A stretch of 64,000 nt of DNA, from IMG/VR virus record IMGVR_UViG_3300025671_000003; one strand, given 5' to 3'. The position numbers were made by a program, and so were the translations under genes. Positions 1 through 62,045 of this stretch are shown here, one piece after another (positions within the stretch are counted from its first letter, which is position 1; each line of letters begins with the position of its first letter). The notes beneath the pieces are model-generated. The model saw only the letters and a list, made by a program, of their open reading frames with translations, ran no database searches and was not told where the DNA came from. This DNA comes from an uncultured virus (IMG/VR IMGVR_UViG_3300025671_000003). Its lineage: Duplodnaviria; Heunggongvirae; Uroviricota; Caudoviricetes.

Positions 1-116
1 TTGCAATAATAATACAACAATTTTTAATACGGATGATTGGATTAAGAATGATGATTTTATAAAATTTGCTAAGTCTAAACAACAAAAGATAGACCAATTA
101 GAAAGAGAGGTTGAGG
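1..116 (+). repeat. Direct repeat copy 1 (identical to 33224-33339)
   Basis: TTGCAATAATAATACAAC...GAAAGAGAGGTTGAGG matches base for base. Confidence 0.95.
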
Positions 117-304
117 GGTTTAAACTTTATTATTCAACAACTGAGTTTAAAATAATAAGAGAAAACCAACAGTTAAAGGAAAGGAATAAGGAGTTTGAAG
201 AAGTTAGTGTGAATGAATTTATGAATTTTTACACTGAATATGATAATGGGTTAAATACTAACTCAACTGTTGCAGAAGTTATTAAACTACTAAAAACTAA
301 ATAG
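2..304 (+). CDS. 5'-truncated coiled-coil hypothetical protein, allele of 33195..33569
   Basis: Hand translation CNNNTTIF...QLEREVE...ENQQLKERNKE...LLKTK*. Confidence 0.75.
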   Translation, partial: CNNNTTIFNTDDWIKNDDFIKFAKSKQQKIDQLEREVEGFKLYYSTTEFKIIRENQQLKERNKEFEEVSVNEFMNFYTEYDNGLNTNSTVAEVIKLLKTK

Positions 305-307
305 ATT

Positions 308-421
308 ATGAGCAATAAAAGAGAAATAAAGTTTTACAAAATAATAAGACCATACATTTATGGTTATGTTATAGGTAAAATTATAATAGATATTGTTAAA
401 ATTGCTAATAACCTAATATAA
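308..421 (+). CDS. 37-aa micro-ORF (MSNKREIK...)
   Basis: Hand translation; shares its N-terminus with 33573..33746. Confidence 0.5.
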   Translation: MSNKREIKFYKIIRPYIYGYVIGKIIIDIVKIANNLI

Positions 422-426
422 AAACA

Positions 427-579
427 ATGAGTGAAGCAGAAAAAGAAGTTATTATAAAAATTAATTTAGAGTTGAACGGAGATACTGCAATAAAAATAAT
501 GAATTGCTTAAAGAAAAATGAGCCTAAAATATGGCAAGAATTAAAAAGCCAAGTAAAAGAAATACTAACTAATAAATGA
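427..579 (+). CDS. 50-aa hypothetical protein, near-identical to 33757..33909
   Basis: MSEAEKEVIIKINLELNGD... conserved in both copies with the same length. Confidence 0.75.
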   Translation: MSEAEKEVIIKINLELNGDTAIKIMNCLKKNEPKIWQELKSQVKEILTNK

Positions 580-664
580 TGAGTTAATCAAACAAGATAA
601 ACAAACAATTAAAGAAATATGATACTGTATAATACCTGATAACTACCATTTAATCTATATTTAG

Positions 665-24758: not shown

Positions 24759-25244
24759 ATGAGTTTAGAGAAAGCTAAAAAAATACTCTCAGAGCCTATA
24801 CAATCTAATGAGATAGAGTGGAGAGTACAGCAGCAAACAAAATCAGGGGATAAAATTATAATAGTACCATACATTAATAATAGGTGTGTTATGGAGAGAT
24901 TTGATAAAGCCTTTGGATGGGATAAATGGAGTAATGAGTTTACTGAGGTAGATGGTGGATTTATCTGTACTATCAAAATAGAGCATGATAATGGTTTTAT
25001 TATTAAATCTGATGGGGCATCTAAAACTAAAATAGAGCCTGTTAAGGGGGGTATATCTGACAGTATGAAAAGGGCAGCAGTACAGTTAGGATTAGGCAGG
25101 GGGTTATATGATTATCCAAAGGTAATGATAGAAACCACAGGCAAATATATACCTAATTGGGCTGAGGATAGATTAAATAAAATGGTAGATATGATCAATA
25201 AAGGACAATTTAAAGAATATATAGCAATATTAAAACAAAAATAA
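24759..25244 (+). CDS. sak: Rad52/Sak-like single-strand annealing recombinase
   Basis: IEWRVQ, YI..R.VMERFD, KGGISDSMKRAAVQLGLGRGLY. Confidence 0.88.
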   Translation: MSLEKAKKILSEPIQSNEIEWRVQQQTKSGDKIIIVPYINNRCVMERFDKAFGWDKWSNEFTEVDGGFICTIKIEHDNGFIIKSDGASKTKIEPVKGGISDSMKRAAVQLGLGRGLYDYPKVMIETTGKYIPNWAEDRLNKMVDMINKGQFKEYIAILKQK

Positions 25245-30316: not shown

Positions 30317-30546
30317 GTAAAATAAAAAAATATACTCCTGAGCAATATAATACAGGAGAATTAAACCTATTAACTATGGAGAAAAAATTAATAATTAGAG
30401 TATCTAAGTTAATGAGGCATAAAAGAGATTTAACAGCTAAAGTATTAGGTATATCTGAAAGGAATTTATATTTTAAAATAGATAGGCATGATATAGGGCA
30501 TTTAACTACATTTAACCATAAAAAAAAAGAGCATGAAAGTAACTGA
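30313..30546 (+). CDS. Fis-type HTH protein
   Basis: TAKVLGISERNLYFKI. Confidence 0.75.
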   Translation: MSKIKKYTPEQYNTGELNLLTMEKKLIIRVSKLMRHKRDLTAKVLGISERNLYFKIDRHDIGHLTTFNHKKKEHESN

Positions 30547-31189
30547 TAAAATAACAATTACAAACGAAGATAATATGCTATTAATGGCACGTTATCCAGA
30601 TAACTATTTTGATTTAGCTATTGTTGACCCACCTTATAAAAATGAATTTGTAATTGCGGCAAGTGATAATGCAAGTAAAGTAAAAAGAAATGGAAACCTA
30701 AAAACACTAAATAATAACGTACCTACAAATGAATATTTTACTGAACTTAAAAGAGTAAGCAAAAATCAAATAATATGGGGTGTTAATTATTATGAAATTT
30801 ATTTAGGTGCTGGAAGGATAGTTTGGGATAAAGATAATACGGGTGTTTATTCAGATTGTGAATTAGCGTACCATTCTTTTTCTGATGTAACAAGAAAGTT
30901 TAAATGGAGGTGGAACGGTATGCTTCAGCAAGATATGAAAAACAAAGAAACAAGAATACATCCAACACAAAAGCCTCGACAACTTTATAACTGGCTTTTA
31001 GATAAATACGCAAATGATGGAGATAAAATATTAGATACTCACTTAGGTAGTGGCTCTATTGCTTTAGCTTGTCACAATAGAGGCTTTGAATTAACAGCCT
31101 GTGAATTAGACAAAGATTATTATAATGCAGCAATAAAAAGAATTAAAAACCATACAGCTCAAACATCTATATTTGATTTTGGGGCTTAA
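30533..31189 (+). CDS. N6A/N4C DNA methyltransferase, beta class (copy 1)
   Basis: DPPY, HPTQKP, ILDTHLGSGS. Confidence 0.92.
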   Translation: MKVTDKITITNEDNMLLMARYPDNYFDLAIVDPPYKNEFVIAASDNASKVKRNGNLKTLNNNVPTNEYFTELKRVSKNQIIWGVNYYEIYLGAGRIVWDKDNTGVYSDCELAYHSFSDVTRKFKWRWNGMLQQDMKNKETRIHPTQKPRQLYNWLLDKYANDGDKILDTHLGSGSIALACHNRGFELTACELDKDYYNAAIKRIKNHTAQTSIFDFGA

Positions 31190-31198
31190 AACTAAATT

Positions 31199-31864
31199 AT
31201 GAAAGTAACAGATAAAATAACAGTAACAAACGAAGATAATATGCTTTTAATGGCACGTTATCCAGACAACTATTTTGATTTAGCTATTGTTGACCCTCCT
31301 TATGGTGGTAATGATGCAATAGGTTTAAAAGATAATACATCCAAAGGTAAACAAGCGACTAAAAGAACAAATTATAATGTGTTTGAGAATATTGCACCAA
31401 CCAAAGAGTATTTTAAGGAGCTAATAAGAGTTAGTAAAAATCAGATTATTTGGGGAGTAAATTTTTATAATAATTTTGATTTATCAGGAGGACGTATTTG
31501 TTGGGATAAAAAGGGGACGGCTTTTGGTAGAGCTGAATTAGCTTTTTATAGTGGTTCTAAGTCTGTTAATGTATATGAGTTTACTTGGAACGGTATGATA
31601 CAACAAGATATGAAAAATAAAGAGGTAAGAATACATCCAACACAAAAGCCTCGACAACTTTATAATTGGCTATTAGATAACTACGCTAAAGAGAATGATA
31701 AAATATTAGACACTCATTTAGGTAGTGGGAGCATTGCCTTAGCTTGTCACGATAGAGGCTTTGAATTAACTGCTTGTGAATTAGACAAAGACTATTACGA
31801 GGCAAGTATTAAAAGAATTAAAAACCACGTTTCACAAGTAACTATATTTGATTGTGGAGCTTAA
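31199..31864 (+). CDS. N6A/N4C DNA methyltransferase, beta class (copy 2)
   Basis: Same motifs; tandem paralog. Confidence 0.92.
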   Translation: MKVTDKITVTNEDNMLLMARYPDNYFDLAIVDPPYGGNDAIGLKDNTSKGKQATKRTNYNVFENIAPTKEYFKELIRVSKNQIIWGVNFYNNFDLSGGRICWDKKGTAFGRAELAFYSGSKSVNVYEFTWNGMIQQDMKNKEVRIHPTQKPRQLYNWLLDNYAKENDKILDTHLGSGSIALACHDRGFELTACELDKDYYEASIKRIKNHVSQVTIFDCGA

Positions 31865-33079: not shown

Positions 33080-33100
33080 GATATATCAGATATATTGATT

Positions 33101-33108
33101 TATATTTG
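33101..33108 (+). promoter_or_regulatory. TAnnTTTG element before the cassette region
   Basis: TATATTTG, intergenic. Confidence 0.55.
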
Positions 33109-33194
33109 TAGAGAGCAAAACAATTAATTAAAACATCATAAGCAAAAAATATAATAATTAGTATGGTTGTAGCTGTATATAAAATAGATTAGTT

Positions 33195-33569
33195 ATGAGT
33201 ATAGAAGAAATAAAAATACATAATTGCAATAATAATACAACAATTTTTAATACGGATGATTGGATTAAGAATGATGATTTTATAAAATTTGCTAAGTCTA
33301 AACAACAAAAGATAGACCAATTAGAAAGAGAGGTTGAGGATTTAAGGAGTGGTAAAAATACAATGGTTTTTGGTGGTAGGTCAATAGGAAAAACGTATTT
33401 ACAAAGCATTGAAAAAGAAAACCAACAGTTAAAAGAAAGGAATAAGGAGTTGGAGAGATTCGCTAAAATACAAGATGCAAATTTGAATGACTTGTTTTAT
33501 CAAAAAAGATTAAATGAAAAAGTAATAAAGTTAAGAGATGGGTTAAAACAACTATTAAAAACTAAATAG
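33195..33569 (+). CDS. Coiled-coil hypothetical protein spanning the A/B junction
   Basis: ORF track; allele of 2..304. Confidence 0.75.
   Translation: MSIEEIKIHNCNNNTTIFNTDDWIKNDDFIKFAKSKQQKIDQLEREVEDLRSGKNTMVFGGRSIGKTYLQSIEKENQQLKERNKELERFAKIQDANLNDLFYQKRLNEKVIKLRDGLKQLLKTK
33224..33339 (+). repeat. Direct repeat copy 2
   Basis: Identical to 1-116. Confidence 0.95.
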
Positions 33570-33572
33570 ATT

Positions 33573-33746
33573 ATGAGTGATAAAAGAGAAATAAAGGAAT
33601 TATTAAGAATGGATAGTTATATTCAATGTGATGAATGTAAAAGAAAGTCTTTTGGTGGGGATTCAATAAATTCATATTGCAATATGAGGCAACCTAATGG
33701 CAAGATTTGTAAGGGCAAATTCAGAAGTAAAGATTTATTAACCTAA
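33573..33746 (+). CDS. 57-aa Cys-containing protein (MSDKREIK...CDEC...)
   Basis: Hand translation. Confidence 0.6.
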   Translation: MSDKREIKELLRMDSYIQCDECKRKSFGGDSINSYCNMRQPNGKICKGKFRSKDLLT

Positions 33747-33756
33747 TATAAAAACA

Positions 33757-33909
33757 ATGAGTGAAGCAGAAAAAGAAGTTATTATAAAAATTAATTTAGA
33801 GTTGAACGGAGATACTGCAATTAAAATAATGAATTGTTTAAAGGAAAACGAGCCTAAAATATGGCAAGAATTAAGAAGTGAATTAAAACAAATTAAAACA
33901 AATAAATGA
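33757..33909 (+). CDS. 50-aa hypothetical protein
   Basis: Homolog of 427..579. Confidence 0.75.
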   Translation: MSEAEKEVIIKINLELNGDTAIKIMNCLKENEPKIWQELRSELKQIKTNK

Positions 33910-33949
33910 TGAGTTAAACAAATAGGTTATAAACAATAAAAAAGAAGTT

Positions 33950-34144
33950 ATGGAAGGGGTTAAAATTATTTACAAAAACAATAAGCCTTACGGAATAAGG
34001 GATATTAATGGGTTTTTATTTTTCTTTAGTAATGTGAGTAAATTTGATAATCAAGAAGAAAGATATAGAAAGGAATTAATGCAACAGTTTGAACTTGCAG
34101 ATTTTTTAAAGTTGAAATTAGAAGAATTTAACCAAACAAGATAA
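33950..34144 (+). CDS. Hypothetical protein
   Basis: ORF track. Confidence 0.6.
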   Translation: MEGVKIIYKNNKPYGIRDINGFLFFFSNVSKFDNQEERYRKELMQQFELADFLKLKLEEFNQTR

Positions 34145-34155
34145 ACAATAAGATT

Positions 34156-34356
34156 ATGAAACATTTAGATAGATTAATAATTTACATTATTTATACGACA
34201 ATATCTGGAGAAATACTTATTCATAAAGTATTAGATATTGCAAAACACCCTTGTAATATACATTGGAAAATATTATTCCCTTATATTATAATATTTGTAA
34301 TGCTATTAATTATAACATACAAGAAATATAAAACATTTTCAGATAAAACAGATTAA
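34156..34356 (+). CDS. Small membrane protein
   Basis: Two hydrophobic stretches. Confidence 0.55.
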   Translation: MKHLDRLIIYIIYTTISGEILIHKVLDIAKHPCNIHWKILFPYIIIFVMLLIITYKKYKTFSDKTD

Positions 34357-34471
34357 TAAACAAACAAGATGAGTGAATGGACTAAATTAAAACTATCTGC
34401 TTTGTTTGGAATATTAACAGCTTTAGGAATATTTGCATTTGTAATTAATTTATTATATTATTTAAAATTAG

Positions 34472-34479
34472 TATATTTG
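34472..34479 (+). promoter_or_regulatory. TAnnTTTG element before phage B terS
   Basis: TATATTTG. Confidence 0.6.
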
Positions 34480-34493
34480 TAAAAAAAGATATT

Positions 34494-34826
34494 ATGCCAA
34501 GTGGTGGAAAAAGAGAAGGTGCAGGGAGACCAAAAGGTTCTCCAAATAAAAGCACACAAGAAATAAGAAACGCTTTTCAGATGTTTGTAGAAAACAATGT
34601 AGAGAATTTTGAAGATTGGATTGTGAGAGTTGCAGAAACAAATCCAGCTAAAGCAATAGAATTAGTTACTAACTTAGGGGAGTATATACTTCCTAAATTA
34701 TCAAGAACAGAAGTTAAAGCTGAAATAACAACAGATGAAATAGATTTAAGCAACTTACCACAAGAAACATTAGATAAACTAATAAATGAGAACGACACTA
34801 ACGAAACTGAAAGCGGAGAGCTATAA
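34494..34826 (+). CDS. terS: Terminase small subunit (putative)
   Basis: GGKREGAGRPKGSPNK; overlaps TerL. Confidence 0.75.
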   Translation: MPSGGKREGAGRPKGSPNKSTQEIRNAFQMFVENNVENFEDWIVRVAETNPAKAIELVTNLGEYILPKLSRTEVKAEITTDEIDLSNLPQETLDKLINENDTNETESGEL

Positions 34827-37627: not shown

Positions 37628-38482
37628 ATGAGTATTAAAATACTAATAGGAACTGTTACAGCACAAAATAAAGATTACTGCTGGAAAGATTTTAAAAAAC
37701 AATTACTTGGATTACAGAAATTAGGACACGATGTTTTAATAGTTGATAACTCAGATACAATAGTTAATAGACCACCGTTTAAGACTATTCATTACACTAA
37801 AGGAACTTTGTTGAGGAAAAAGTTCGATTTGATAAACAAACAGCAAAAATCAAAAGACAATTATCTTACAATAGTTACTAAAGACTGTATGAATATTATA
37901 AGAGATGAGTTTCTTAAAGGAGATTATACCCATTTATTTATATTAGAGTCTGATGTATTTTTAGATAAGGATTTTAAGTCTTTAGATAGACTAATAGAGC
38001 TTAATGCTGATGTTGCTAACTTTACTTATCCGATGAAGTTAACACGTAATAAAGGAGCTTTATCTTTATGTGTTCAATCAACAAACGCTAAAGGAGAAGC
38101 AAAGATGATAACACCAGACGAAAGTAAGACATTGTTAAATCAAGGTGTTAAAGTTTTAAATGTAGATGTACATAATGATAAGACGTTAACTCATTGTGGT
38201 TATGGTTGTACATTAGTAAAGCGTAGAGTATTAGAGGCTATTGATTTTAAAGCAGTAAGAACTTCTAATGGTGTTACCCCTTTTCCAGATAGTGTATTTC
38301 ATTATGACGTTAATAAAGGCAATTTTTATAATGTTTTAGATACCGATTATATTCCTTATCATTGCAATATAAACAATGAAACAGAGAACTATATGAAGAT
38401 AACCCAAATTAGAAACAATACAACAAGGAGACAAAGACGTGAACAAGATAAGATTAATAAGAAAATACAAAAAAGAGGGTAG
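37628..38482 (+). CDS. GT-A-fold glycosyltransferase
   Basis: IVDNSD, YTHLFILESDV, GYGCTLVKR.VL, PDSVF. Confidence 0.78.
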   Translation: MSIKILIGTVTAQNKDYCWKDFKKQLLGLQKLGHDVLIVDNSDTIVNRPPFKTIHYTKGTLLRKKFDLINKQQKSKDNYLTIVTKDCMNIIRDEFLKGDYTHLFILESDVFLDKDFKSLDRLIELNADVANFTYPMKLTRNKGALSLCVQSTNAKGEAKMITPDESKTLLNQGVKVLNVDVHNDKTLTHCGYGCTLVKRRVLEAIDFKAVRTSNGVTPFPDSVFHYDVNKGNFYNVLDTDYIPYHCNINNETENYMKITQIRNNTTRRQRREQDKINKKIQKRG

Positions 38483-38711
38483 AGTTTTATTAGTTAGTTC
38501 TAACAGATATTATGATTGTTATTTCATTTCTAATAATAAAAGCTATAAGAAGCTACTTGAAGAATTACAGATTAAATTAATAGGCTTAGATGTAGCAGAA
38601 TGTGAACATCAAGACTTAACTGTACTTTTAGAAACTAAACACGCTAATAAATTAATTGCTGATTTGTTTGAGTTGGCAAATGTAGTAAGATGTAAAATGA
38701 TTAAGGTATGA
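38439..38711 (+). CDS. Hypothetical protein
   Basis: ORF overlapping both neighbours. Confidence 0.5.
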   Translation: MNKIRLIRKYKKEGRVLLVSSNRYYDCYFISNNKSYKKLLEELQIKLIGLDVAECEHQDLTVLLETKHANKLIADLFELANVVRCKMIKV

Positions 38712-39334
38712 AGAAAGTTTGTGTAGTACCAATATTCGGAGATTATGACAATCTAAAAGAGCCTACATTTATTAACGATGATTGGAAGTATATCTGTATA
38801 TCTGATAAACACCATAAGTCTAATGTATGGAAAACTAAGATATTTAAAAACGATACATTAACTAACAAACAAAAAAGTGGTTATGTATTAACTCAGCTTC
38901 ATAGACTTTTAGATTATGATGTTGCTATTGTAGTCGGTGGACAAATACAAATCAACACAGACTTAAATAAGTATATCTTTGATGAAGACTTTGTTAGCTT
39001 AGACCACCCAAGTAGAAACTGTATTTATAAAGAAGCTCAAGCGTGTATCTTATTAGACAAAGACAATCCAAAGGTTATAGCTAAACAGATGTATAAGTAT
39101 TTAGAAGAAGGCTATCCAGTTAATAATGGAATGATACAAACTGGCATAACAATTAGAAAAGATAATAATTTAATTCGTACTTTTATGAATAGGTGGTGGT
39201 ATGAGATACAGACGTATTCACAGAGAGACCAATTAAGCTTTAACTATGTGAAGCATCAAATACCAATATCACATAGAGAGTTAAGTAGTAATTTATTAAA
39301 TAAAGAATTTAAACTAAATAAACATAATGGGTGA
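38708..39334 (+). CDS. DUF616/TOD1-MUCI70-like glycosyltransferase
   Basis: IFGDYDNL.EP, HPSRNCIY.E, WWYEI...SQRDQLSFNY. Confidence 0.85.
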   Translation: MKKVCVVPIFGDYDNLKEPTFINDDWKYICISDKHHKSNVWKTKIFKNDTLTNKQKSGYVLTQLHRLLDYDVAIVVGGQIQINTDLNKYIFDEDFVSLDHPSRNCIYKEAQACILLDKDNPKVIAKQMYKYLEEGYPVNNGMIQTGITIRKDNNLIRTFMNRWWYEIQTYSQRDQLSFNYVKHQIPISHRELSSNLLNKEFKLNKHNG

Positions 39335-39482
39335 GATAAAAGAGTTATTAATTAAGAATGGTTGGATTGAAACGAATAACATAAAACCAACATTTAAAAA
39401 GGACGATGTATTTATAAGGGTTGAGGTGTGGGGCGTAACAGATAAAGGTGGTTGTACAAAAGTAATTGATTTAACTAAATAA
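39327..39482 (+). CDS. 51-aa micro-ORF flanked by 16-bp direct repeats
   Basis: Hand translation; AACTAAATAAACATAA at 39312-39327 and 39473-39488. Confidence 0.6.
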   Translation: MGEIKELLIKNGWIETNNIKPTFKKDDVFIRVEVWGVTDKGGCTKVIDLTK

Positions 39483-39663
39483 ACATAAGTAATATGAAAA
39501 AAGGAATAATATTTATAATGATTGCAGTAGCTCTTTTTTATGGGTTGACGTATTTAATGACTGAACTATCATTTGATTACTGGTGGCATTTTCCCACATA
39601 TGTAGTTGGTGGTGTTTTAATGATATTATTTATTGTAATTGGGTGTTATAATATTTTATCAAA

Positions 39664-40389
39664 ATGAAAATAACAATAGTGACAGCAATATGGCAACGTC
39701 CCGAAGTTTGGGATATGTTTAAACAAGGTGTAAGACGTTTAAGAAACCAATACAACGATGTTGATGTTCAAGTCTGTGTTAGTGGTTCAGAGGGTGGAGC
39801 CTCTCAAAACAGATGTAAAGAAAAGTGGATTCACTATGTTGAAATAGAAAACAATCCTTTAGGTAGAAAGATGAACGCTGCATTAACATTAGCAAAACAA
39901 ACTAATGCAGATTATTATTTGTTAATGGGTAGTGATGATATTATCTGCAATAACTTATTTGATTTATATTTAGATTATATTGAGCAAGAGATTGACTACA
40001 TTTATTTAATGGACGGGTACTTCTTTGACACAACAACTAAGCGTTCTTTATATTGGGGTGGTTATGCTGATAAATTAAACTTAGGCAGACCACTTGGAGC
40101 AGGTAGAATGTTAAGTAAAAGATTAGTAGAGAAAATGGATTATAAGTGTTGGTATGATGTTAAACTAAGTGGATTATTAGACCAAGCAATGGATGAGAAG
40201 TTGGCAGAGATTGATTATACTAAGCAAGAAATATATTGCAGAGATAACGATTGTATGTTGTTAGATATTAAGAGCAGTACTAATATGACAAAGTTTGCTA
40301 AATGGAATAATACAGAGTTTATACATACTGATATTATTAAAAATTATTTACCTATATTTGAATTTAATAAAATATATTATGTCAAATAA
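39664..40389 (+). CDS. GT-A-fold glycosyltransferase
   Basis: VTAIWQR, PLGRKMN, LLMGSDD, GAGR, LD. Confidence 0.78.
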   Translation: MKITIVTAIWQRPEVWDMFKQGVRRLRNQYNDVDVQVCVSGSEGGASQNRCKEKWIHYVEIENNPLGRKMNAALTLAKQTNADYYLLMGSDDIICNNLFDLYLDYIEQEIDYIYLMDGYFFDTTTKRSLYWGGYADKLNLGRPLGAGRMLSKRLVEKMDYKCWYDVKLSGLLDQAMDEKLAEIDYTKQEIYCRDNDCMLLDIKSSTNMTKFAKWNNTEFIHTDIIKNYLPIFEFNKIYYVK

Positions 40390-40564
40390 AACAAAAGTGT
40401 ATTTAGTAAGTGAAAAAGAGCCTTCATTCAACACAATAATTGAGGCTAAGAAAGGAGTAAAAGGAAAATGGGAAAAGGTTAAAAGAACTTATCAAGGAGA
40501 TAAACCCGAATACAATTTTCCTAAAGAAGATAACGGATTTACTCATTGGAGGTATTTATTATGA
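40379..40564 (+). CDS. DUF551-like small protein
   Basis: VSEKEP...FTHWRYL; ATG at 40379. Confidence 0.5.
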   Translation: MSNKTKVYLVSEKEPSFNTIIEAKKGVKGKWEKVKRTYQGDKPEYNFPKEDNGFTHWRYLL

Positions 40565-41157
40565 ATAATAAAATAAGCCAATTTGCTTTTGTTTCTCCAA
40601 ACGCTATTATAGGAGATAACAACATCATAGAGGAGGGTGTTGTGATAAAAGATAATGTAGTAATAGGAGATAACAACCATATCTACCCATATACAACAAT
40701 CGGATTAGCTGGAGAAGTTAGAGGAGATGACAATATAAAAGGCAAAGTAGTAATAGGTAATAACAATGTAATAAGAGAGTTTACAAGTATTCAATCCCCT
40801 CAAAGGTATGATTACACTCAAATAGGTAACAACTGCTTTATAATGGATAAAACGCATATTGCACACGATTGTATTGTAGGAGATAATGTTACTATTGCAC
40901 CAATGGTTACTTTAGGCGGTTGTGTTAATGTTGGCAACTATACTAACTTAGGCATTAACTGTTCTATACATCAGAGGCTAACAATCGGAGAAAGTTGTAT
41001 GATTGGAATGGGTGCTATAATAGTTAAAGATATACCTAACTATGAAAAGTGGGTTGGAGTACCTGCTAAGTGTATCGGTTGGAATTTACTTGGCTTAAGA
41101 AAGCGTTACCCAAATAAAACAGAAGAAGAAATTATAGAACTATGTGTGGTATCTTAG
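40561..41157 (+). CDS. LpxA-like hexapeptide-repeat acyltransferase
   Basis: IGDNN repeats, IREFTSI, HIAHDC, IHQ, GVPAK. Confidence 0.9.
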   Translation: MNNKISQFAFVSPNAIIGDNNIIEEGVVIKDNVVIGDNNHIYPYTTIGLAGEVRGDDNIKGKVVIGNNNVIREFTSIQSPQRYDYTQIGNNCFIMDKTHIAHDCIVGDNVTIAPMVTLGGCVNVGNYTNLGINCSIHQRLTIGESCMIGMGAIIVKDIPNYEKWVGVPAKCIGWNLLGLRKRYPNKTEEEIIELCVVS

Positions 41158-41621
41158 CAGTCATAGGAGATTATAGGTATAAAGAAATACCAAAAGCATT
41201 ATTAGAACGTGGTAGAGATGATAACGGTATCTATCAAGATAAACACGTTCAGCTAATACAAACACGCTTAGAGATAACTAAGTGTAATATTGAGCTACCA
41301 TATCAAACAGATAGATATGTATTGTTATTTAATGGAGAAATATACAACTATAAACAGTTTGGAGATAATGAATATGAAGCAATATTAAATGTATATCAAT
41401 ACGGTGGAGAGTTAGACGGTCAATATGCTATTATAGTTTATGATAAACAAACTAAAGAAGTAACAACGCTTACAGATAGTTTTGGCATTCATTGCTTATA
41501 CAAAGATGATTATAATGGTAGTAGGTTCTACTCATCTAATTTAAGAAGTTTACCAAAGATTGAATTTAAAGAAGCACAACATAGAGGATATGGAAACATT
41601 ACCAAGCAAAGAGTTTTATAA
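41142..41621 (+). CDS. AsnB-type Ntn glutamine amidotransferase domain (stand-alone)
   Basis: MCGI N-terminus, RGRD, RLEI, FNGEIYNY, DGQYA, DSFG. Confidence 0.88.
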   Translation: MCGILAVIGDYRYKEIPKALLERGRDDNGIYQDKHVQLIQTRLEITKCNIELPYQTDRYVLLFNGEIYNYKQFGDNEYEAILNVYQYGGELDGQYAIIVYDKQTKEVTTLTDSFGIHCLYKDDYNGSRFYSSNLRSLPKIEFKEAQHRGYGNITKQRVL

Positions 41622-42339
41622 AGCATTTCTAAACGCTATAATTAAGAGAATGACTGATAATATAGTCGTTCCAGTTAGTGGTGGTTTAGACTCAACACTA
41701 ATAGTTAAGGCTTTATATGATTTAGGATTAGAAAACGATGTTCAATATGTTACAATGTATGGTAATGAGTATGCAGATAAGGTAGCAGAAACTTATAGTA
41801 TCAAGTTAGATGTATTTACTCCAGACTATAAAGAAGAAGATTTAGTTAAAATGGTTGAGATATTAGAAGAACCTTTTTATTCTCCAAGCGTAAACTATTA
41901 CTTATATGAAAAAATACATAGCATTGGTGGTCGAGTTTCTCTTAGTGGTTTGGGTGCTGATGAGCTTTTTGGTGGTTATGATTATTATAACACAAATAAA
42001 TACCCTCGAGGTTTGTTTAAAGAAGTTGTGGCGATTTCTAACAAAGAAAAGAAAGCGCAAGATTTACACTTTCTAACTAATCATCATTTAAGAGAGAATG
42101 AGAAGTTAGGGTTATATTGGCAAGTAGAAGGACGTTATCCTTTCTTAGATAAAGTAGTAAGTAAGACTGATGACAATGGTAAGAGTTTAATAAAGGATAT
42201 ATTACTTAGAGATTTTAGTGATGACTTTGTTAATAGACAAAAAGAGGGTTTCAGAATAGATGATAATAAAGATAGAGAACATCAAAAACAGCATTATATG
42301 AAACAATTAAATATTTGGAAGCAGATATTTATGAAATAA
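41590..42339 (+). CDS. AsnB-type synthetase domain (stand-alone)
   Basis: SGGLDS, LSGLGADELFGGY, EGRYPFLD, RQKEGF. Confidence 0.9.
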   Translation: METLPSKEFYKAFLNAIIKRMTDNIVVPVSGGLDSTLIVKALYDLGLENDVQYVTMYGNEYADKVAETYSIKLDVFTPDYKEEDLVKMVEILEEPFYSPSVNYYLYEKIHSIGGRVSLSGLGADELFGGYDYYNTNKYPRGLFKEVVAISNKEKKAQDLHFLTNHHLRENEKLGLYWQVEGRYPFLDKVVSKTDDNGKSLIKDILLRDFSDDFVNRQKEGFRIDDNKDREHQKQHYMKQLNIWKQIFMK

Positions 42340-43358: not shown

Positions 43359-44506
43359 TGGCTATAACTATATACACAGAACCAAATCAAATAAGCACAC
43401 CGTACAGACCTAATTACTTTGATGTATCGAGTGATTTAGGAACTATTATTAGAATGATAGCAGATGTTTATGTTGACGGTACACTTGTAACAACAATAGA
43501 CAAAGACCCTAAACTGGGGTTTAGTAATCAATTTAGATTTGAAGTGGGAGATGTATTAAAAAAATATTTAACATCTGACTTTGTAACACTTAATGCAGAG
43601 GCAGATATTTCAACAGACTTAGCAAGTGCAAACAATTACTATATTAGAGCGTTTGAGGTATTAGATAATTCAAGTACATCTACATTCGATACTTCTTGGA
43701 GTGAAGCAGGAGCAGGAACTAATTACACTCAATCAAGTACTTTAAGCACGTTTAACGGTGTTAATCAACATCAACAAACATTAAGCGACTATATAGCTTC
43801 AAGTGGTTCAAGTAAGTTTTTAACTAATAGACCTAATTTAACATACGTTCCTAGAAGTGATTTTAGAACGGGTATATTGACAGAAGCAAACGTAGTTGAG
43901 TTAAATCTATCTACTTTTACTGCTATTAATGGTGGTGGTTCACAAGTATCATCTACTTCAAACTCCTTAACAGTAGTAGATAATAAAGTTTGGTTTGGTG
44001 TTCAAGTAGGTAATTTTGCATCTACAATAAAATCTTTTCAAATATCTGCATCTAATAATACTCTTGGTACAGAAATAACAGAAACAATGACTTTCAATAT
44101 AGTTGAAGCGTGTGATAATGACTTAACTGTATATTGGCAAAATCATTGGGGGGAGTTCGATAACTACTTATTTAAAGGTAAACAAGGTCAAAAGACTAAA
44201 AACAAAACAACAACAATAGATAATAGATTAACATTAGATTATAGTGTAGGAGATAGAGGAACTAAAGACTTATTAAAAGATAATACAAGAACATTTGATG
44301 CTTATACAAATACTGTTAAAGCGTCTGTTGTTGAGTGGTTAGCAGAGATAGGAGAAAGCGTTGATGTTAAAATTATTAAAGGTGGCGAAGTGATACCAGT
44401 AAATGTTAAAAAAGTAACAACTACAATAGAAGACTCTGAAAGAGCTGTATCACAAATATCAATAACATTTGAAGAAGCAAATAAAAGGATAAATCAAATT
44501 GGATAA
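43358..44506 (+). CDS. Tail structural protein
   Basis: WQNHWGEFDNYLF motif; position. Confidence 0.65.
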   Translation: MAITIYTEPNQISTPYRPNYFDVSSDLGTIIRMIADVYVDGTLVTTIDKDPKLGFSNQFRFEVGDVLKKYLTSDFVTLNAEADISTDLASANNYYIRAFEVLDNSSTSTFDTSWSEAGAGTNYTQSSTLSTFNGVNQHQQTLSDYIASSGSSKFLTNRPNLTYVPRSDFRTGILTEANVVELNLSTFTAINGGGSQVSSTSNSLTVVDNKVWFGVQVGNFASTIKSFQISASNNTLGTEITETMTFNIVEACDNDLTVYWQNHWGEFDNYLFKGKQGQKTKNKTTTIDNRLTLDYSVGDRGTKDLLKDNTRTFDAYTNTVKASVVEWLAEIGESVDVKIIKGGEVIPVNVKKVTTTIEDSERAVSQISITFEEANKRINQIG

Positions 44507-47408
44507 CGTACAAATTGAAATATTAGACTCTGCTAATAACATTGAAGGTGTTTTAGAAGTTGGAGATGTTAAAAACTTTCCATTATCATTAACTAATAGT
44601 ATTGCTGAATTAGTAGATATTAATAAAAGTAATGGTAGTTACTCTGTGCCTTTTAAGATACCAAGCACAAAAGATAACGATGATTTATTAGACCATATAT
44701 ATTTAAGTCAACAAAAAAACTACAAAGATATTGACGCTGAAAAAGATTGTAGAATTATCGTTAATGGTTTAAATATTGATAACGGGCGTTTAAAGATAAC
44801 ACGTATTAAAAGAGTTGGTCAAAGTGGTAATAATTATAGTTTTACTTTCTTTGGGGAAAATATGGATTGGGCTTTACAGATGCGAGGTAAAACAACGCAA
44901 GACTTACCATATTTAGATAATACATATACTTACGATACAACAACACAGATAGCAAGTTGGTCTAATGTAGGTGGTAGTGAGCAACCAGTATTTAGTTTAA
45001 TCAATAGGGGTGTACGTTTACAATCTAATGTAGTTAATGTTGGTGATTTATACCCAGATTACTTTGCTTTAGACTACTTAAACAACGCTTTTAAATCTGT
45101 TGGTTATAACTTTGACAGTACACACTTTAATCAAACAACAGAAAAACAATTAATAATACCTTTCTTTGGTAATAACTTTAGAGATGAAGCAAGGCAAGAA
45201 GATGAGAAAGCTGTTGTTAAAATGGATAGTTCAGCAACCAATTTCGATAATAGCTTTACTGTTGGTGGTACTGCTTTTAATACTGCTGATAAAATAAAGT
45301 TTTACGGTAAGTTATTAAACTATCAAGGGCTTACTTTTCCGACTGGATTAGTTGATGATTTCTTAACAGAGAATAAAGTTGCTGATTATATAGAAACACC
45401 ACTTCCATTAAAAGATGATGGTAATAACTTTGCTTCTAATCAATACGTAGTGCCTTATGCAACAGATTATAGAGCCGCTGGGACTATTGAACATACTTTA
45501 ACATATAACCCTACTGAAAATTGGAATACATACAACATAGACTATAAAGTTAAAGTAACAAGAGGCTCAAGTGTATTTTATATAATTGCTTATTTATCTA
45601 ATAAAGTAACTACAACTAATGTATTAAGTGCTTCACGTTCAGAAGATGTGACTGTCGCTACATTTAAAACTAATAACTTTGCTTTACAAGCAGGAGATAT
45701 ATTAGAGTTATCTTACTTTTTTAGTGTTAAAGCAGTATCAAATTTAGCTACTACAAGTTGGTATTTTAAATTAGAACACGAAAGTCATCCAATATTATTT
45801 AAACCCACAGCAGAAATTAAAGAGGGAGAAGTATTTAATTGGAAAGATGTGAGTGATGATAAAATAAGTATGTTAGATATTGTTAGCGACATTGGTAAGA
45901 CTGCAAATATTATATGGAGAGTAAACAAAAGAAATAAAACTGTATATGCAGAGCCAAGAGATGACTTTTATAATGCTTTAAATACTGCTACAAACTACAC
46001 AGATAGAATAGATGAAAACAACCAAATAGAGTTAACTTATAATTCATTATATTATAAACAAGGTCATAAGTTTAGCTACAAAGAAGATGGCAACGATAAG
46101 TATTTAAAGAAAAGAAATGAAGATGTAGGAGATGATTGGTTAAGCTATGAACATTCTTATCCAACAAAGTTTAAAAGTGGAACTACTAAGCTGGAAACAA
46201 AAGAAATAGCTGCAACATATACAATAGAAGATATTAACGGTGGTGGCTCTTACCCATTTTTTACTGCAAGACTTTGGAATGATGAAACATCTCCGACTGC
46301 ATCAACGGTATTTAAACCACGTTTATTATATTTTAACTATGCTGTTCAATCTACTTTAGATAGTAATACTCCGAGTTTTCAATATTCAACAGAGTCATCA
46401 CAAAGAGCTACAATACCATACGCTTTACCGTTCTCTATAATTCAAGACGGTGTTACTTTAGCAGGTGTTGATGGTGTTTTAAGTTTTAAAGATACTGAAA
46501 CAGAAAACGGTATTTGGTCTAATCACTATTCGTTAACATCACGTGAAATAATAGAGGGTAAAAGAGCAAAGGTTAATTTTACTTTTGATTTAGTTGATTA
46601 CAACGAATTAGATTTTAGAAAAATAATATACATAGATAATCGTTACCCAGAATTAGAGGGTTATTGGCGTATAGATAAAGTAAATGGTTTTAAACCAGCA
46701 GGTGGTAAAAAAAGCACAAAGTTTGAATTGAGTCAAGCAAAAAATTATGAACCTTTAGCACGTTTCCCACTTGGACCTATAAGTACAGAGATAGGAGATG
46801 ACCCAATAAACGGTGGATATAATCTTAACTACGGTAATGGTGTAGACACTATCGGTGGTAATTCAAGAGTATATTCATCAACTAACTACGGTGTTAATAA
46901 TACAGTCGCAGATGATAGTAATACAGTTATCGGTAATAATTTAAGAGTTAGTGGTGGTGGAGTTACTGCTTACGGTATGTATAATGCAGACGTTAGTAGT
47001 GATTTATTACAATTCGGAGTAGGTACAAATGAAAACAATACAAGAACATTAATAAGAGTAGATGAAGACGGTAATGTATATTTTAACGGCTCATTGTTAA
47101 ATGAAAATGGAGATGGTACTGTTGTAACTGTTACTTCTGATATAACAGCAGATGAAAATGTAGATACATATTTAGTAGATACAACATCAGATATAACAAT
47201 AACATTTGAAGAACCTACAACTTTAGGTAAAACTTGGAATTGTAAAAAGATAAACGCTTCTAATACTATGACTTTGTTAGGTGGTAGTGATGGTTCTGGT
47301 GGTGTTTTAGAAGTAGATGGAGATGTTACTGGTGCATCTGCAACATCGTTAAATGACAATTTACCAATTCAATGGTGTGGAGAAACAGAACAATTTAAAA
47401 TATTATAA
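44499..47408 (+). CDS. Large tail tip/hub protein
   Basis: SYSVPFKIPST..N N-terminus, KPRLLY, fibre-like C-terminus. Confidence 0.72.
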   Translation: MDNVQIEILDSANNIEGVLEVGDVKNFPLSLTNSIAELVDINKSNGSYSVPFKIPSTKDNDDLLDHIYLSQQKNYKDIDAEKDCRIIVNGLNIDNGRLKITRIKRVGQSGNNYSFTFFGENMDWALQMRGKTTQDLPYLDNTYTYDTTTQIASWSNVGGSEQPVFSLINRGVRLQSNVVNVGDLYPDYFALDYLNNAFKSVGYNFDSTHFNQTTEKQLIIPFFGNNFRDEARQEDEKAVVKMDSSATNFDNSFTVGGTAFNTADKIKFYGKLLNYQGLTFPTGLVDDFLTENKVADYIETPLPLKDDGNNFASNQYVVPYATDYRAAGTIEHTLTYNPTENWNTYNIDYKVKVTRGSSVFYIIAYLSNKVTTTNVLSASRSEDVTVATFKTNNFALQAGDILELSYFFSVKAVSNLATTSWYFKLEHESHPILFKPTAEIKEGEVFNWKDVSDDKISMLDIVSDIGKTANIIWRVNKRNKTVYAEPRDDFYNALNTATNYTDRIDENNQIELTYNSLYYKQGHKFSYKEDGNDKYLKKRNEDVGDDWLSYEHSYPTKFKSGTTKLETKEIAATYTIEDINGGGSYPFFTARLWNDETSPTASTVFKPRLLYFNYAVQSTLDSNTPSFQYSTESSQRATIPYALPFSIIQDGVTLAGVDGVLSFKDTETENGIWSNHYSLTSREIIEGKRAKVNFTFDLVDYNELDFRKIIYIDNRYPELEGYWRIDKVNGFKPAGGKKSTKFELSQAKNYEPLARFPLGPISTEIGDDPINGGYNLNYGNGVDTIGGNSRVYSSTNYGVNNTVADDSNTVIGNNLRVSGGGVTAYGMYNADVSSDLLQFGVGTNENNTRTLIRVDEDGNVYFNGSLLNENGDGTVVTVTSDITADENVDTYLVDTTSDITITFEEPTTLGKTWNCKKINASNTMTLLGGSDGSGGVLEVDGDVTGASATSLNDNLPIQWCGETEQFKIL

Positions 47409-47410
47409 TA

Positions 47411-48190
47411 ATGGCTTATATAGGTAATAGAGAGTTTTTAATAGAAGTAGCAAAAGGCAATATTGCTGGACATTCAATTATACATAAATTTGGTAAAAAC
47501 ATAAGCACAAATACATCTTTCACACCAGTTTCTGTTGGTGGTATATATCAAACACCACAAACTGGTAGTGCTACAACTTTAAGAATAAAATCTGGTGGTA
47601 ATGCAAATGATACTGCTGCTGGTAGTGGTGCAAGAAAGGTTATGTTGGAAGGAATTGACGAAACTGGAGCTATAGTAACAGAAGAGCTAACAACGGCTGG
47701 AGCGTCTGCAAGTTCAACAACAACGACTACATTCATAAGATTATATAGAGCTTATGTGTCCGAGTCTGGTACGTACGGCACATCTTCAACTGGCTCTCAT
47801 AGTGGAGCTATCGTTATTGAGAATGGCGGGGGTGGTACTGATTGGGCTGAGATAAGTGTAACTAACTACCCAAAAGCTCAAACTGAAATAGGTGTTTATA
47901 CTATACCAAATGGATATACTGGTTATTTAATAAATGCATTCGGTTTTACTGATAGCTCTAAGACTACGGAATTAATTTTCTTTAAAAGAACTGGCATATT
48001 AGATACTTCAGCCCCTTACGATGCAGTTAGAATAGTGTTTGAAGAAAGAGTAGAAGGTGGGGAGTTTAAAGTTGACCCTAAAGCACCGATATTGTTGGGA
48101 ACTGCTTGCGATTGTGGGTTTATGGCTAAAGTAGGTACTGGTAGTGCCGAAGTAGATGTTGATTTTGAAATATTGTTAATAGAAAATTAG
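47411..48190 (+). CDS. Virion structural protein
   Basis: VAKGNIAGHS..HKFG, GSGARKV...G.D, YTIP.G. Confidence 0.6.
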   Translation: MAYIGNREFLIEVAKGNIAGHSIIHKFGKNISTNTSFTPVSVGGIYQTPQTGSATTLRIKSGGNANDTAAGSGARKVMLEGIDETGAIVTEELTTAGASASSTTTTTFIRLYRAYVSESGTYGTSSTGSHSGAIVIENGGGGTDWAEISVTNYPKAQTEIGVYTIPNGYTGYLINAFGFTDSSKTTELIFFKRTGILDTSAPYDAVRIVFEERVEGGEFKVDPKAPILLGTACDCGFMAKVGTGSAEVDVDFEILLIEN

Positions 48191-48195
48191 AAAAT

Positions 48196-50658
48196 ATGGC
48201 AACAAAAACGATAGCAATAGCCGTTCAGATTGAGGGCGATGCACAACTAAGACAATTACAAGCTAATTTTGACCAAGTAAGAAGGGCAAGAATTGAGTTA
48301 AATAAAGCAGAAAAAGCTGGTACTGTAACTGCTAAACAAGCAAATGCAGAAAGAGCAAAGTTAAATGTTCAGTTAAAAGCAAATAGAAATGCTTTAACAG
48401 ACCACCAAAACGCTTTACTTAAAAACAATAACGCTCTAAAAAAGAATAGTGGATTTGTTTCTGGTGTTAAAAAAGGAATGGGACAATGGGCTACTTCAAT
48501 GATTGGAGTAACTGCTGCTATTGCTGGTGTAACAAGATTAGTAAGTGGAGCAGTTAAAATATTTGTAGATTTTCAAAAAGCTAATAGTGAGTTAGCAGCC
48601 GTTTCAAGAGCATCAGCAGAAGAAATGAAAGCAATGAGTACCCAAGCAAAAGAATTAGGAGCTTCTACTGCTTTTACTGCATCACAAGTTACAGAATTAC
48701 AAACTAACTTTGCTCGTTTAGGTTTTCCAACACAAGATATACAGAATATGACAGAGGCTACCTTAAATGGTGCTGCTGCATTAGGTTCTGATTTAGGAGA
48801 ACAAGCAGCATTAACTGGAGCTTTATTAAAACAGTTTGGTTTAGATAGTGAGGAAGCTGGTAGAGTTAATGATGTATTAGCTGAAAGTGCTGCTAAATCT
48901 GCATTAGACTTTAGTAAGTTATCGACTGCTTTACCTATTGTTGGTGCAACTGCTAATACTGCTGGTGTAAGTATAGAGAGAACAACGGCTTTATTAGGTA
49001 CTTTATCAGATAGAGGTTTAGACGCTTCAACTTCTGGTACTTCTTTAAGAAACATATTTTTAGAATTGTCTAAGAAAGGATTAACTTTTGATGAGGCAAT
49101 GAAACAAATAAACGACTCTACCGATAAGAATAAAACAGCAATGGATTTATTTGGTAAGCGTTCTGCAACTGCTGGAATTATATTAGCTGAAACTGGTCAG
49201 AGTGTTGATAGTTTAGAGGGTTCTTTAATTAATGCAGAGGGAGCAGCTAAGAAAATGGCTGATACTATGCTTGATAATGTTAGTGGAGATGTTACAAAAG
49301 CACAATCTGCTTATGAGGGTTTTATATTATCTTTAGAAGACGGTAACGGAGTTATATCAGATGTTATTAGAAATGTAACACAATTAGCAACATCTTATTT
49401 AGGAATAGCAACAGCAATAAATGAAGCAGAAACAGCACAAGAGGCTTTTAATGCTATCGGTTCTATATGGGGAGAAGAAATAGGTGTATTTAATGAACAG
49501 ACTGCTGAATACTCAAAAAACTTAGCAGATAACGCTAATAACATTGCTGTATTAGATGAGAGATTAGCCAACAACAAAATAACACAAGAGCAGTATAATT
49601 TAGCAATTCAAAAGTTAGCTACTGGTTGGAAAAGAGCAAGTAAAGAAATCAAAGAAGCTGATGATACTATAAGTGGTGTTACAGATACAGTAACAGAGTC
49701 AACAGAATTAACTCCAGAACAAGTAACAAGAATTAACGATAAAGCAAAGAAAGCAGCAGAAGTAAAAGCACAAGCACAAAAAGACGCTTTAAAAGCTATT
49801 GAAGAACAAGAAGCAGCAGATACAGAGGGAGAACAAGGTGTTTTTGATGCTGAAATACTTAAAAATGAAAACCTTTTAGCAATAGATAAAGAATATTTAG
49901 ACGCTAAAAAATTACAATTAGATGAGTCAATAGCAGCAGAAATAGCAGCAGAAGAAAAGAAAGCACAAGATTTAGCAACTATTGAACAACTTAAAAGAGA
50001 TGCAAGACAAGCAACATTTGGATTAACTGCCGATTTATTTAATTTAGGTGCAAGTTTAGCAGCAGAGGGAAGTAGAGAGCAAAAGGCTTTAGCAAGTGCA
50101 GCAGCATTAATACAAACATATCAAGCAGCACAAGCAGCTTATTTAAGTCAATTATCAATACCAACTCCAACAGCACCAATTAGAGCAGCAGCAGCAGCAT
50201 CAATAGCAGTCGCAAGTGGTCTTGCTAATGTGGCAAAAATTAATTCAACTAAATTTGAAGGTGGTGCAATTCTTCAAGGTGCTTCCCACGCTAACGGTGG
50301 GATACCATTTACGATAGATGGTCAAGCAGGTTTTGAAGCAGAGGGTGGAGAAGCAATAATAAATAAAAGAAGTACAGAAATGTTTGCACCGTTATTAAGT
50401 GCAATAAATGAAGCTGGTGGTGGTGTTGCTTTTGGACGTGGTGGTCGTTTAACTAAGTTTCAAAACGGTGGTTCTTTACCAACTAATGTAGGTGTTACTG
50501 CATCTCAACAAGGATTTGCAAGTGGTGTAATAGATTTAGAAGAATTTAGTTCTGCAATAGTTGACGGTATTAATGATAAAGAAGTTATTAATGTTGCTAC
50601 AAACACAACAGACTCAGCAAGTGAAGTATTAAACATTGCAAGTGAGGCTACTTTCTAA
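48196..50658 (+). CDS. Tape measure protein (TP901 core)
   Basis: AKELGASTAFTASQV, SGTSLRN, MADTMLDN..GD. Confidence 0.93.
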   Translation: MATKTIAIAVQIEGDAQLRQLQANFDQVRRARIELNKAEKAGTVTAKQANAERAKLNVQLKANRNALTDHQNALLKNNNALKKNSGFVSGVKKGMGQWATSMIGVTAAIAGVTRLVSGAVKIFVDFQKANSELAAVSRASAEEMKAMSTQAKELGASTAFTASQVTELQTNFARLGFPTQDIQNMTEATLNGAAALGSDLGEQAALTGALLKQFGLDSEEAGRVNDVLAESAAKSALDFSKLSTALPIVGATANTAGVSIERTTALLGTLSDRGLDASTSGTSLRNIFLELSKKGLTFDEAMKQINDSTDKNKTAMDLFGKRSATAGIILAETGQSVDSLEGSLINAEGAAKKMADTMLDNVSGDVTKAQSAYEGFILSLEDGNGVISDVIRNVTQLATSYLGIATAINEAETAQEAFNAIGSIWGEEIGVFNEQTAEYSKNLADNANNIAVLDERLANNKITQEQYNLAIQKLATGWKRASKEIKEADDTISGVTDTVTESTELTPEQVTRINDKAKKAAEVKAQAQKDALKAIEEQEAADTEGEQGVFDAEILKNENLLAIDKEYLDAKKLQLDESIAAEIAAEEKKAQDLATIEQLKRDARQATFGLTADLFNLGASLAAEGSREQKALASAAALIQTYQAAQAAYLSQLSIPTPTAPIRAAAAASIAVASGLANVAKINSTKFEGGAILQGASHANGGIPFTIDGQAGFEAEGGEAIINKRSTEMFAPLLSAINEAGGGVAFGRGGRLTKFQNGGSLPTNVGVTASQQGFASGVIDLEEFSSAIVDGINDKEVINVATNTTDSASEVLNIASEATF

Positions 50659-50694
50659 ATAATATTTTGTAATTTTATAACAAATCAAAATAAA

Positions 50695-50883
50695 ATGTTT
50701 GTAAGTGAAATTAAAAGAAAATATAGAAGAAGTGTTTGTAACATTTGTCCAAACAAAAGAGGAAACTTTAAGTTATTCGGTTTTACTATCTTCAAAAGAG
50801 TTGACCAATGTAGAATTTGTAAGTGTTCTTTATTGTTAAAAACGTCTTTAAAAGACTCTAAATGTCCACGAGGTTTATGGTAG
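50695..50883 (+). CDS. Small Cys-rich (Zn-binding) protein
   Basis: CxxC, CxxCxC, CP.G.W. Confidence 0.7.
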   Translation: MFVSEIKRKYRRSVCNICPNKRGNFKLFGFTIFKRVDQCRICKCSLLLKTSLKDSKCPRGLW

Positions 50884-51358: not shown

Positions 51359-51402
51359 TTTTAAAGTACAATGTTTGTACAACATATTATACTGCAAGTA
51401 TT

Positions 51403-51410: not shown

Positions 51411-51428
51411 TAGTATAACTATTTGTAT

Positions 51429-52448: not shown

Positions 52449-52451
52449 ATT

Positions 52452-61586: not shown

Positions 61587-62045
61587 ATGAAATTAAAAGA
61601 TTTAAAAAAAGAAATTCCATTTCAATGGAGAGTTCAACAAGCAACAGAATATGGAGCTAATTGTGTAGCATATATTGATGCAAGAGATGTTCAAGATTTG
61701 TTAGATGATGTTTGTGGTCAAGATGGATGGCAATGTAAATATGAAGAACATAAAGGTAATTTATTTTGTAGTATAGGCATAAAAATAGGAGATACTTTTG
61801 TATGGAAGTCAGACTGTGGAACTGAAAGCAATATAGAAAAACAAAAGGGAGAAAGTTCTGATGCTTTTAAACGTGCTGCTGTAATGTGGGGAATAGGTAG
61901 GTTTTTGTATTCTAAAGAGATTATAAAATTAGACTCAATGAAAAATAAAGCTGGTAAATGGGTAGCAAGTTATAACGGTAAAATACTTTATGGAAAACAA
62001 GTTTCTAAGGCTTGTAACTATATACTTGAAAATAAAGAAATATGA
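61587..62045 (+). CDS. sak: Rad52/Sak-like recombinase
   Basis: WRVQ, YIDARDV..LLD, KGESSDAFKRAAV.WGIGRFLY. Confidence 0.88.
   Translation: MKLKDLKKEIPFQWRVQQATEYGANCVAYIDARDVQDLLDDVCGQDGWQCKYEEHKGNLFCSIGIKIGDTFVWKSDCGTESNIEKQKGESSDAFKRAAVMWGIGRFLYSKEIIKLDSMKNKAGKWVASYNGKILYGKQVSKACNYILENKEI

Follow-up and report, generated by a model that had tools for sequence, protein, structure and literature searches.

The background to the linker model of phage evolution includes the original papers on Botstein's linkers, those on HK620, and the comparison of the lambda nin region. In this model, as at the locus described here, unrelated modules lie between short conserved gene-boundary sequences and their order is kept, with homologous recombination proposed as the means of exchange. 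The model and the lambdoid boundary sequences are described in passages of PMC2839356 and PMC3029335, and according to one passage of the latter, linker-type sequences cannot be found at most mosaic boundaries. Whether mosaics originate from linkers or from random joins followed by selection has long been debated, and clean cases are few.

Two other described systems are close. In the PeSL cassettes of T4-type phages, too, orphan ORFs are gained, lost and replaced without an integrase, at small conserved elements within a hyperplastic region; PeSLs are repeated elements, consisting of a promoter and a stem-loop, that occur in close relatives, and mini-circles have been demonstrated for them (sections of PMC2839356 and PMC4122927). 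In Rad52-like mosaicism, the recombinases Red-beta, Erf and Sak act on short or diverged homologies, and small gene fragments are the commonest exchanged units (part of PMC3945230). The comparison with known systems also drew on PMC4503421, PMC2327257 and PMC8766483.

The window analyzed here is a stretch of 64,000 nucleotides from an uncultured virus (IMG/VR record IMGVR_UViG_3300025671_000003). It contains an array that is an ordered row of about ten different linkers of 20-45 bases, here called anchors, present in at least six co-occurring aquatic phages. In the literature searched, most subscription papers being outside its reach, no description of such arrays in Bacteroidota phages was found.

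Two phages probably joined on one contig

The source record has 71,401 bp; its last 127 bases are repeated at 33180 and its first 116 at 33224. Two sets of terminase, portal and tape-measure genes are present on this one contig. Both phages are also found alone in IMG/VR, phage A on a contig of 33,294 bp that bears terminal repeats (33,223 + 71) and phage B on one of 37,942 bp, and these stand-alone contigs are identical to the window over the parts compared. Separate assemblies gave an A array identical to the window over 2,812 bp and a B array identical over 2,622 bp. Most likely, judging from these sequences, the contig consists of two circular phages (A, 33.2 kb; B, 38.1 kb) fused by the assembler, and the likely join site is the 160-bp block that both share (Table 1). 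A single real 71-kb genome with an internal duplication was rejected in view of the two terminase/portal/tape-measure sets, the closure of A alone through its 71-bp terminal repeat, and the assembly of B on its own. Because of the join, the ORF at 33195 is preceded in the window by the end of phage A; the true upstream DNA of B is contig 71148-71318. Per-contig depth in run X3, a weak measure, also speaks against a single genome, at ~19 for A-specific and ~5 for B-specific contigs. Shared blocks of this kind can fuse phage genomes in assemblies. The contig is graded 100% complete with terminal repeats, though it is probably two genomes, and the closed circle of A is graded 47%.

A and B have 8 proteins in common at E<1e-5, and their conserved orthologues are 68-77% identical in DNA. 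The array is the sole stretch that they share at near 100%.

Some further features of the two phages were recorded. Two tandem DNA methyltransferase genes, 75% identical, are located at window 30533-31864, and their homologue in phage D (see below) has exact runs of up to 30 bp in common with them. A repeated non-coding element occurs in A at window 33084-33164 and 6458-6531, and one in B at 60584-60681 and contig 70775-70873; one copy lies upstream of each phage's array, and these elements are probably promoters. Clusters containing glycosyltransferase-like genes are found among the head/packaging genes in both phages (window 6506-10583 and 37628-42339). The gene order of B is odd (window 44499-55587), with the tape measure first, a protease plus capsid-like gene next and the portal after these, far from the terminase.

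Anchors shared by phages A and B

The original prediction held that conserved blocks alternate with unrelated inserts at the two array positions of the window, and every block that it named was found in its place. When window 1-800 was compared with 33100-34600, the exact matches were 1-116 = 33224-33339, 160-177 and 179-195 = 33416-33451, 291-312 and 315-331 = 33556-33596, 409-491 = 33739-33821, 571-587 = 33901-33917, 589-604 = 34133-34148, and 597-608 = 34356-34367. With ten anchor probes from phage B (21-43 bp), the main array hits scored 31-86 and the background, made up of 134 windows of 1.3 kb from phages A-D, reached at most 23-34, so the anchors are not due to chance. The coiled-coil ORF is open in both its A and B versions and keeps the predicted pattern QLEREVE-(variable)-ENQQLKERNKE-(variable)-LLKTK-stop in frame; the two ORFs beginning with MS(N/D)KREIK, the common 50-aa gene and the extra 64-aa gene of B are also as had been described. 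A is without B's small ORFs at 34156-34356 and 34369-34482.

Table 1 Features of the array and of the candidate annealases; positions are those of the window unless marked as contig
Feature	Coordinates	Strand	Remarks
Phage A array	1..608	+	coiled-coil ORF 2-304, start at 33195 on the A circle
Anchors of the phage A array	a2 160-195; a3 291-331; a4 406-438; a5 568-587
Hybrid anchor of the phage A array	584-608		a7-left/a8-right
ORFs of the phage A array after the coiled-coil ORF	308-421; 427-579
A Rad52-family single-strand annealing protein	24759..25244	+	Rad52_Rad22
160-bp block identical in A and B	33180..33339	+	a0 with start codon, N-terminal module, a1 at 33315-33339
Copies of the 160-bp block	1-116; contig 71272-71401
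B mosaic coiled-coil ORF, 124 aa	33195..33569	+
Swappable segments of the B coiled-coil ORF	about 33216-33301, 33340-33415, 33452-33555
In-frame anchor a2 (ENQQLKERNKE)	33416..33451	+	in A, B, D
Anchor a3	33556..33596	+	holds stop codons, a translation start and the opening 8 codons; complete or in part in A, B, C, D, F, with a further copy each in C, D, F
57-aa cysteine-containing cassette ORF	33573..33746	+	unrelated bodies in A, C, D, F
Anchor a4	33734..33768	+	in A, B, D, F
50-aa ORF common to A and B	33757..33909	+	83 bp identical, about 89% overall
Anchors a5 + a6	33898..33956	+	stacked stops and the beginning of the following ORF; A, B, D, E have a5, and B-F have a6
64-aa cassette ORF	33950..34144	+
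Anchor a7	34127..34158	+	A has left half only
66-aa hydrophobic cassette ORF	34156..34356	+	98% version in E; replaced in C, D, F
Anchors a8 + a9	34341..34394	+	a8 in B-F; a9 in B, D, E
37-aa hydrophobic ORF	34369..34482	+	in B, E; D keeps the head without the body
B Rad52-family single-strand annealing protein	61587..62045	+	Rad52_Rad22

Each intergenic linker is composed of the tail and stop of one ORF, followed by the start and first codons of the next. At 5/5 intergenic anchors examined (a3, a4, a6, a7, a8), the upstream ORFs enter in at least two frames; at a7, for example, one ends with FNQTR and another with LTKQDKQ before the stop. Since the frame read through an anchor varies with the upstream ORF, the conservation is at the DNA level, and protein-level conservation of the anchor tails is ruled out. 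Stops in all three frames are somewhat enriched at the anchors: within 30 nt of the ATG they occur at 5/6 anchors and at 37/119 control boundaries, and at windows of 20 and 25 nt at 3/6 anchors, the window size having been picked afterwards, which makes this a weak result.

Inserts between the anchors

The comparison of inserts covered 28 inserts in six slots, at the DNA and protein level with 300 shuffles each, and left out further ORFs of C, E and F. No similarity was detected in 53 of the 60 same-slot pairs; four pairs were near-identical, one was a weak homologue (C/D), and two were borderline, about the chance expectation for 120 tests. This left 23 distinct insert types. The claim that the inserts are not ordinary diverged homologues is thus borne out, diverged homology being ruled out save for C/D in slot a7-a8.

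The body of the 50-aa ORF is deleted in D and replaced in F, and no relatives of this gene were found beyond A and B. The 64-aa gene belongs to a widespread family of 60-aa proteins, with 130 other members, and is found elsewhere without anchors. Among its 119 listed relatives (57-83% identical), none ends with the anchor-encoded tail, and at four genome loci with this gene the DNA identity (72-78%) covers the body only. Its structural model, a confident one (pLDDT 95.6), has three strands and a helix, and gave no match to PDB and BFVD at E<=0.001. More generally, insert bodies have anchor-free relatives in distant phages. Pfam gave 0 hits for the 21 cassette ORFs scanned, PHROG 0 hits for 9 window ORFs, and Atlas searches on the cassettes named no family; the tiny cassette ORFs are predicted genes.

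Swapping had also been expected to reach below the level of the gene, and segments of the coiled-coil ORF are indeed exchanged in D and relatives. Contigs from public runs show further versions, with 53 other letters between 33215 and 33302, and 89 other letters between 33451 and 33554, where the short side is only 22 letters. One relative of the coiled-coil ORF (P0124) has segment 1 of B, a new N-terminus and a new segment 2; four (P0129, P0131, P0134, P0136) have the N-terminal module without segment 1 of B; and two (P0130, P0133) have segment 1 behind other N-termini. The modules of this ORF thus appear to travel separately.

Arrays in other phages

Exact-pattern scans of viral and metagenome contigs yielded four more arrays, in phages C-F. 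Phage C (71.9 kb) has a DNA polymerase and Sak4. Phage D is 38-41 kb long and 81% complete, and its array is identical in three contigs. Phage E is B-like, being 98% identical over 8.5 kb downstream, and phage F is represented by two short contigs. As foreseen, the anchors flank other, unrelated inserts in these phages in the same order; across A-F the best hits form collinear rows, to which C, D, E and F add extra or hybrid copies. A and C have 0 proteins in common at E<1e-5 (ORFs >=90 aa), yet both have a0 and a3, and B and C have a3, a6, a7 and a8 in common at 95-100%. In A, B, D, E and F the array follows the replication/recombination genes and precedes the terminase.

Five of the ten loci from the metagenome scan are these phages. 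The other five (L021-L024, L027) are chance matches to the start codons of unrelated genes, and L050 (one of two in one pattern scan) and L044 were set aside as chance pattern hits. Among bacterial genomes, the a6 pattern was found in 0. Half or more of the stretch is present in 4/17 runs, from 2 studies labelled freshwater; run X17, with a small share, contains nothing beyond short matches and a relative of the 64-aa gene. The anchor-bearing contigs all derive from a few assemblies, which may represent one sampling campaign, and the phage pool therefore looks local. In cultured phages there is a single 34-bp match (E = 0.009), in five Phocaeicola phages, and A's helicase finds its best matches, at 30%, in Cellulophaga and Maribacter phages. 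The host is likely one of the Bacteroidota, though support for this is weak, and we infer that these phages have one host in common.

Signs of exchange at the anchors

Phage E agrees with C over 207 bp (96%) as far as a7, and from a7 onward with B over 242 bp (98%); a7 would be its crossover point. In the coiled-coil ORF, D and B have the N-terminus and segment 2 (100%) in common, segment 1 of D being its own, and one 2,551-bp contig in run X5 bridges this combination. These candidate natural recombinants, with their junctions in linkers (E at a7; D versus B at a1/a2), are known from contigs only. Near-identical cassettes in otherwise unrelated phages (C/E, B/D) end at anchors. Hybrid anchors are found at short common words, a7-left/a6-right in E (11 bp) and a7-left/a8-right in A (8 bp), and a further one, a8-left/a7-right, occurs in F. 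One cassette of E lies between 14-bp direct repeats, and C and D have head-plus-tail scars where a body is missing. The public-run contigs listed contain no backward joints, the sign of mini-circles. Exact runs of at least 14 bp common between arrays number 121, of which 55 are at least 23 bp and 66 are shorter than 23 bp; the minimal pairing length is 23-27 bp for Red-beta and 31-34 for RecA, as given in part of PMC3945230.

Outside the array, phage E (L035) has 1,063 bp of A-type DNA (91% identical to window 13171-14232) in its B-like backbone. This DNA corresponds to sequence in the 3' portion of the 600-aa tail-terminator fusion gene of A, and it points to gene flow between these phage types at a second exchange site.

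Recombination enzymes and signals

The original prediction named a Rad52/Sak annealase in both phages. Its Rad52 part stands: the Pfam family Rad52_Rad22 was found in A and B with 63.4 and 53.5 bits, compared with a curated cut-off of 20.3, so the label is fair. The PHROGs name is Erf-like, and the Pfam hit does not separate the Erf and Sak subgroups. C has a Sak4-like protein in place of Rad52, and neither a Rad52 protein nor another annealase was detected in D, which is 81% complete. Phage_integrase, Resolvase and RVT_1 were each found in 0/4 records, C and D being incomplete and E and F outside the search, and the control of the integrase search gave 14/14; the array is in this sense integrase-free, as had been proposed.

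No anchor strand (0/10) folded better than shuffles, and Rfam gave 0 matches in 7 loci. Sigma-70-like promoters numbered 13 compared with 11.7 expected, that is, no excess, and 0 terminators were found in the array. The motif TAnnTTTG, which we take to be a Bacteroidota motif, occurs at 33101, 34039 and 34472, in no case within an anchor.

In array F (L026:1745-2460), an inverted pair of 10 bp encloses a 162-aa gene, and a hairpin is located downstream. This hairpin resembles an integron attC site; its fold has z = -1.84, with 8/200 shuffles as good. At the other site flanking the gene, an attC-like hairpin fold was not found (z = -0.91). The scan for attC-like hairpins reported neither F site, including the hairpin with z = -1.84, and as it missed this foldable site, its blank result carries little weight. 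These features suggest that the 162-aa gene may be a captured integron-type cassette, and hence a second gene source. Flanks that look similar surround a homologue of the 64-aa gene at another locus (L052).

Proposed mechanism and alternatives

We consider it probable that the array reflects homologous recombination that is guided by the linkers when phages co-infect a host, and thereby represents a variant both of Botstein's linkers and of the T4 PeSLs. The small genes and gene segments between the linkers would likely be exchanged by homologous recombination during co-infection of one host, with crossovers within the anchors, and the phage-encoded annealases would probably drive this exchange. 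As each intergenic linker carries a stop and a start, a swapped piece would arrive with both in place; and since every linker is a different sequence, the slot order is kept. Mispairing at 8-14-bp microhomologies may account for the gains, losses and hybrid linkers of A, D, E and F. New bodies appear to be drawn from a wide phage gene pool, as seen for one gene and two sub-gene modules, and would probably be captured through infrequent joining at microhomologies where genes have generic, A-rich beginnings and ends, the weakest step of the proposal. Ordinary gene starts match an anchor in register over at least 8 bp in 38/215 cases and over at least 10 bp in 6/215, and next to one distant homologue the following gene agrees with a7 over 14 bp.

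Several points weigh against linker-guided recombination. At least 23 unrelated insert types lie in anchors that are ~85-100% identical, a capture rate that is poorly explained; contigs are the whole basis for the putative crossovers and the enzyme role; and D is without a detected Rad52, C has Sak4, and 66/121 shared runs are below 23 bp. The small number of gene starts that match an anchor, the presumed nature of the common host (a6 being found in no bacterial genome) and the few source assemblies count against it as well. A bolder reading, possible but doubtful, is that the linkers form a common adaptor standard in unrelated phages of one host, offering stops in several frames and a start, and that foreign ORF bodies are captured by annealases, through microhomologies of 8-14 bp, at a pace that outruns the erosion of the linkers by point mutation. 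If true, this would be an enzyme-free integron analogue, with a shared accessory genome crossing phage families and new proteins arising from sub-gene modules.

The anchors could instead be expression signals (stop, translation start and perhaps a regulator site) kept by selection, which we find unlikely; bodies would then be replaced by non-homologous events in each lineage, and the anchors would be what survived rather than crossover sites. That intergenic anchors centre on stop-to-start junctions agrees with this, as do, weakly, the three-frame stops (5/6 versus 37/119 at 30 nt); moreover, mosaics are usually explained by non-homologous joining close to gene boundaries (relevant part of PMC3029335), and a non-homologous route is probably needed for first capture anyway. 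However, the ten anchors differ mutually, so no single signal explains them, and their identity spans codons read in different frames as well as the in-frame anchors a1 and a2. Neither a promoter excess nor a terminator was found in the array, and the near-identical cassettes of C/E and B/D end at anchors in phages that are otherwise unrelated.

Still harder to sustain, and decidedly unlikely, is dedicated capture, in which the anchors would be degenerate sites of a host integron-type integrase or of an unrecognised phage recombinase. The 162-aa gene of F with its inverted pair and attC-like hairpin, the directly repeated flanks of the E cassette, and the high insert diversity beside high anchor identity all fit such capture. 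However, the three enzyme families were found in 0/4 records (A, B and the incomplete C and D), although a host enzyme could act in trans; the anchors do not fold better than shuffles and are not copies of one site; and the other flank of the F gene is without the hairpin, neither flank having been reported by the scan. Finally, that the mosaics are assembly artefacts, strains stitched at short repeats, is highly improbable, for although the window's contig is itself very likely such a join and the evidence is contigs and not raw reads, separate assemblies reproduce the A and B arrays, the D array is the same in three contigs, E differs from C by 4% and from B by 2% and is thus a separate population, and misassembly is unable to create common anchors between unrelated genomes.

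Comparison with known systems

Under linker-guided recombination, orphan mini-genes would have one route by which to move between phages too distant for common core genes. The six arrays provide named linkers, cassettes, a candidate recombinant and candidate enzymes, and so make the linker model directly testable.

Diversity-generating retroelements and retrons do not match the array: reverse transcriptase was found in 0/4 records, and the inserts are unrelated and not point variants. Integron arrays, too, line up short ORFs that are unrelated and co-oriented and that are gained and lost. In contrast to integrons, the array has no integrase (tyrosine integrase, 0/4 records), no repeated palindromic site of the attC type after each cassette (one attC-like hairpin, in array F only), a fixed slot order, and swaps inside genes.

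The anchors also differ from PeSLs in being position-specific, unstructured, without promoter or terminator, partly located in coding DNA, and common across phage types; there is no promoter, stem-loop terminator or single repeated element, but ten different anchors with at most two strong copies each per array. Rad52-like mosaicism has been shown in E. coli temperate phages (part of PMC3945230), whereas the phages studied here have candidate annealases, and no integrase or prophage was found.

The closest match is the Botstein linker. The boundary sequences flank non-homologous modules and the order is conserved, and exchange would proceed by homologous recombination at the linker. Compared with the described linkers, nearly every boundary here is a linker, most modules are ORFs of 30-130 aa or in-frame segments of 14-35 aa, and some of the partner phages are unrelated in their heads, tails and replication genes. 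The original prediction spoke of an integrase-free cassette-shuffling system; the concept is rather that of linkers, or boundary sequences, which is already familiar from phage mosaics. The array is likely a clean natural example of this old idea and not a new enzyme system; what is unusual is the density of the linkers, the in-frame sub-gene swaps, and the sharing across phages with unrelated core genes.
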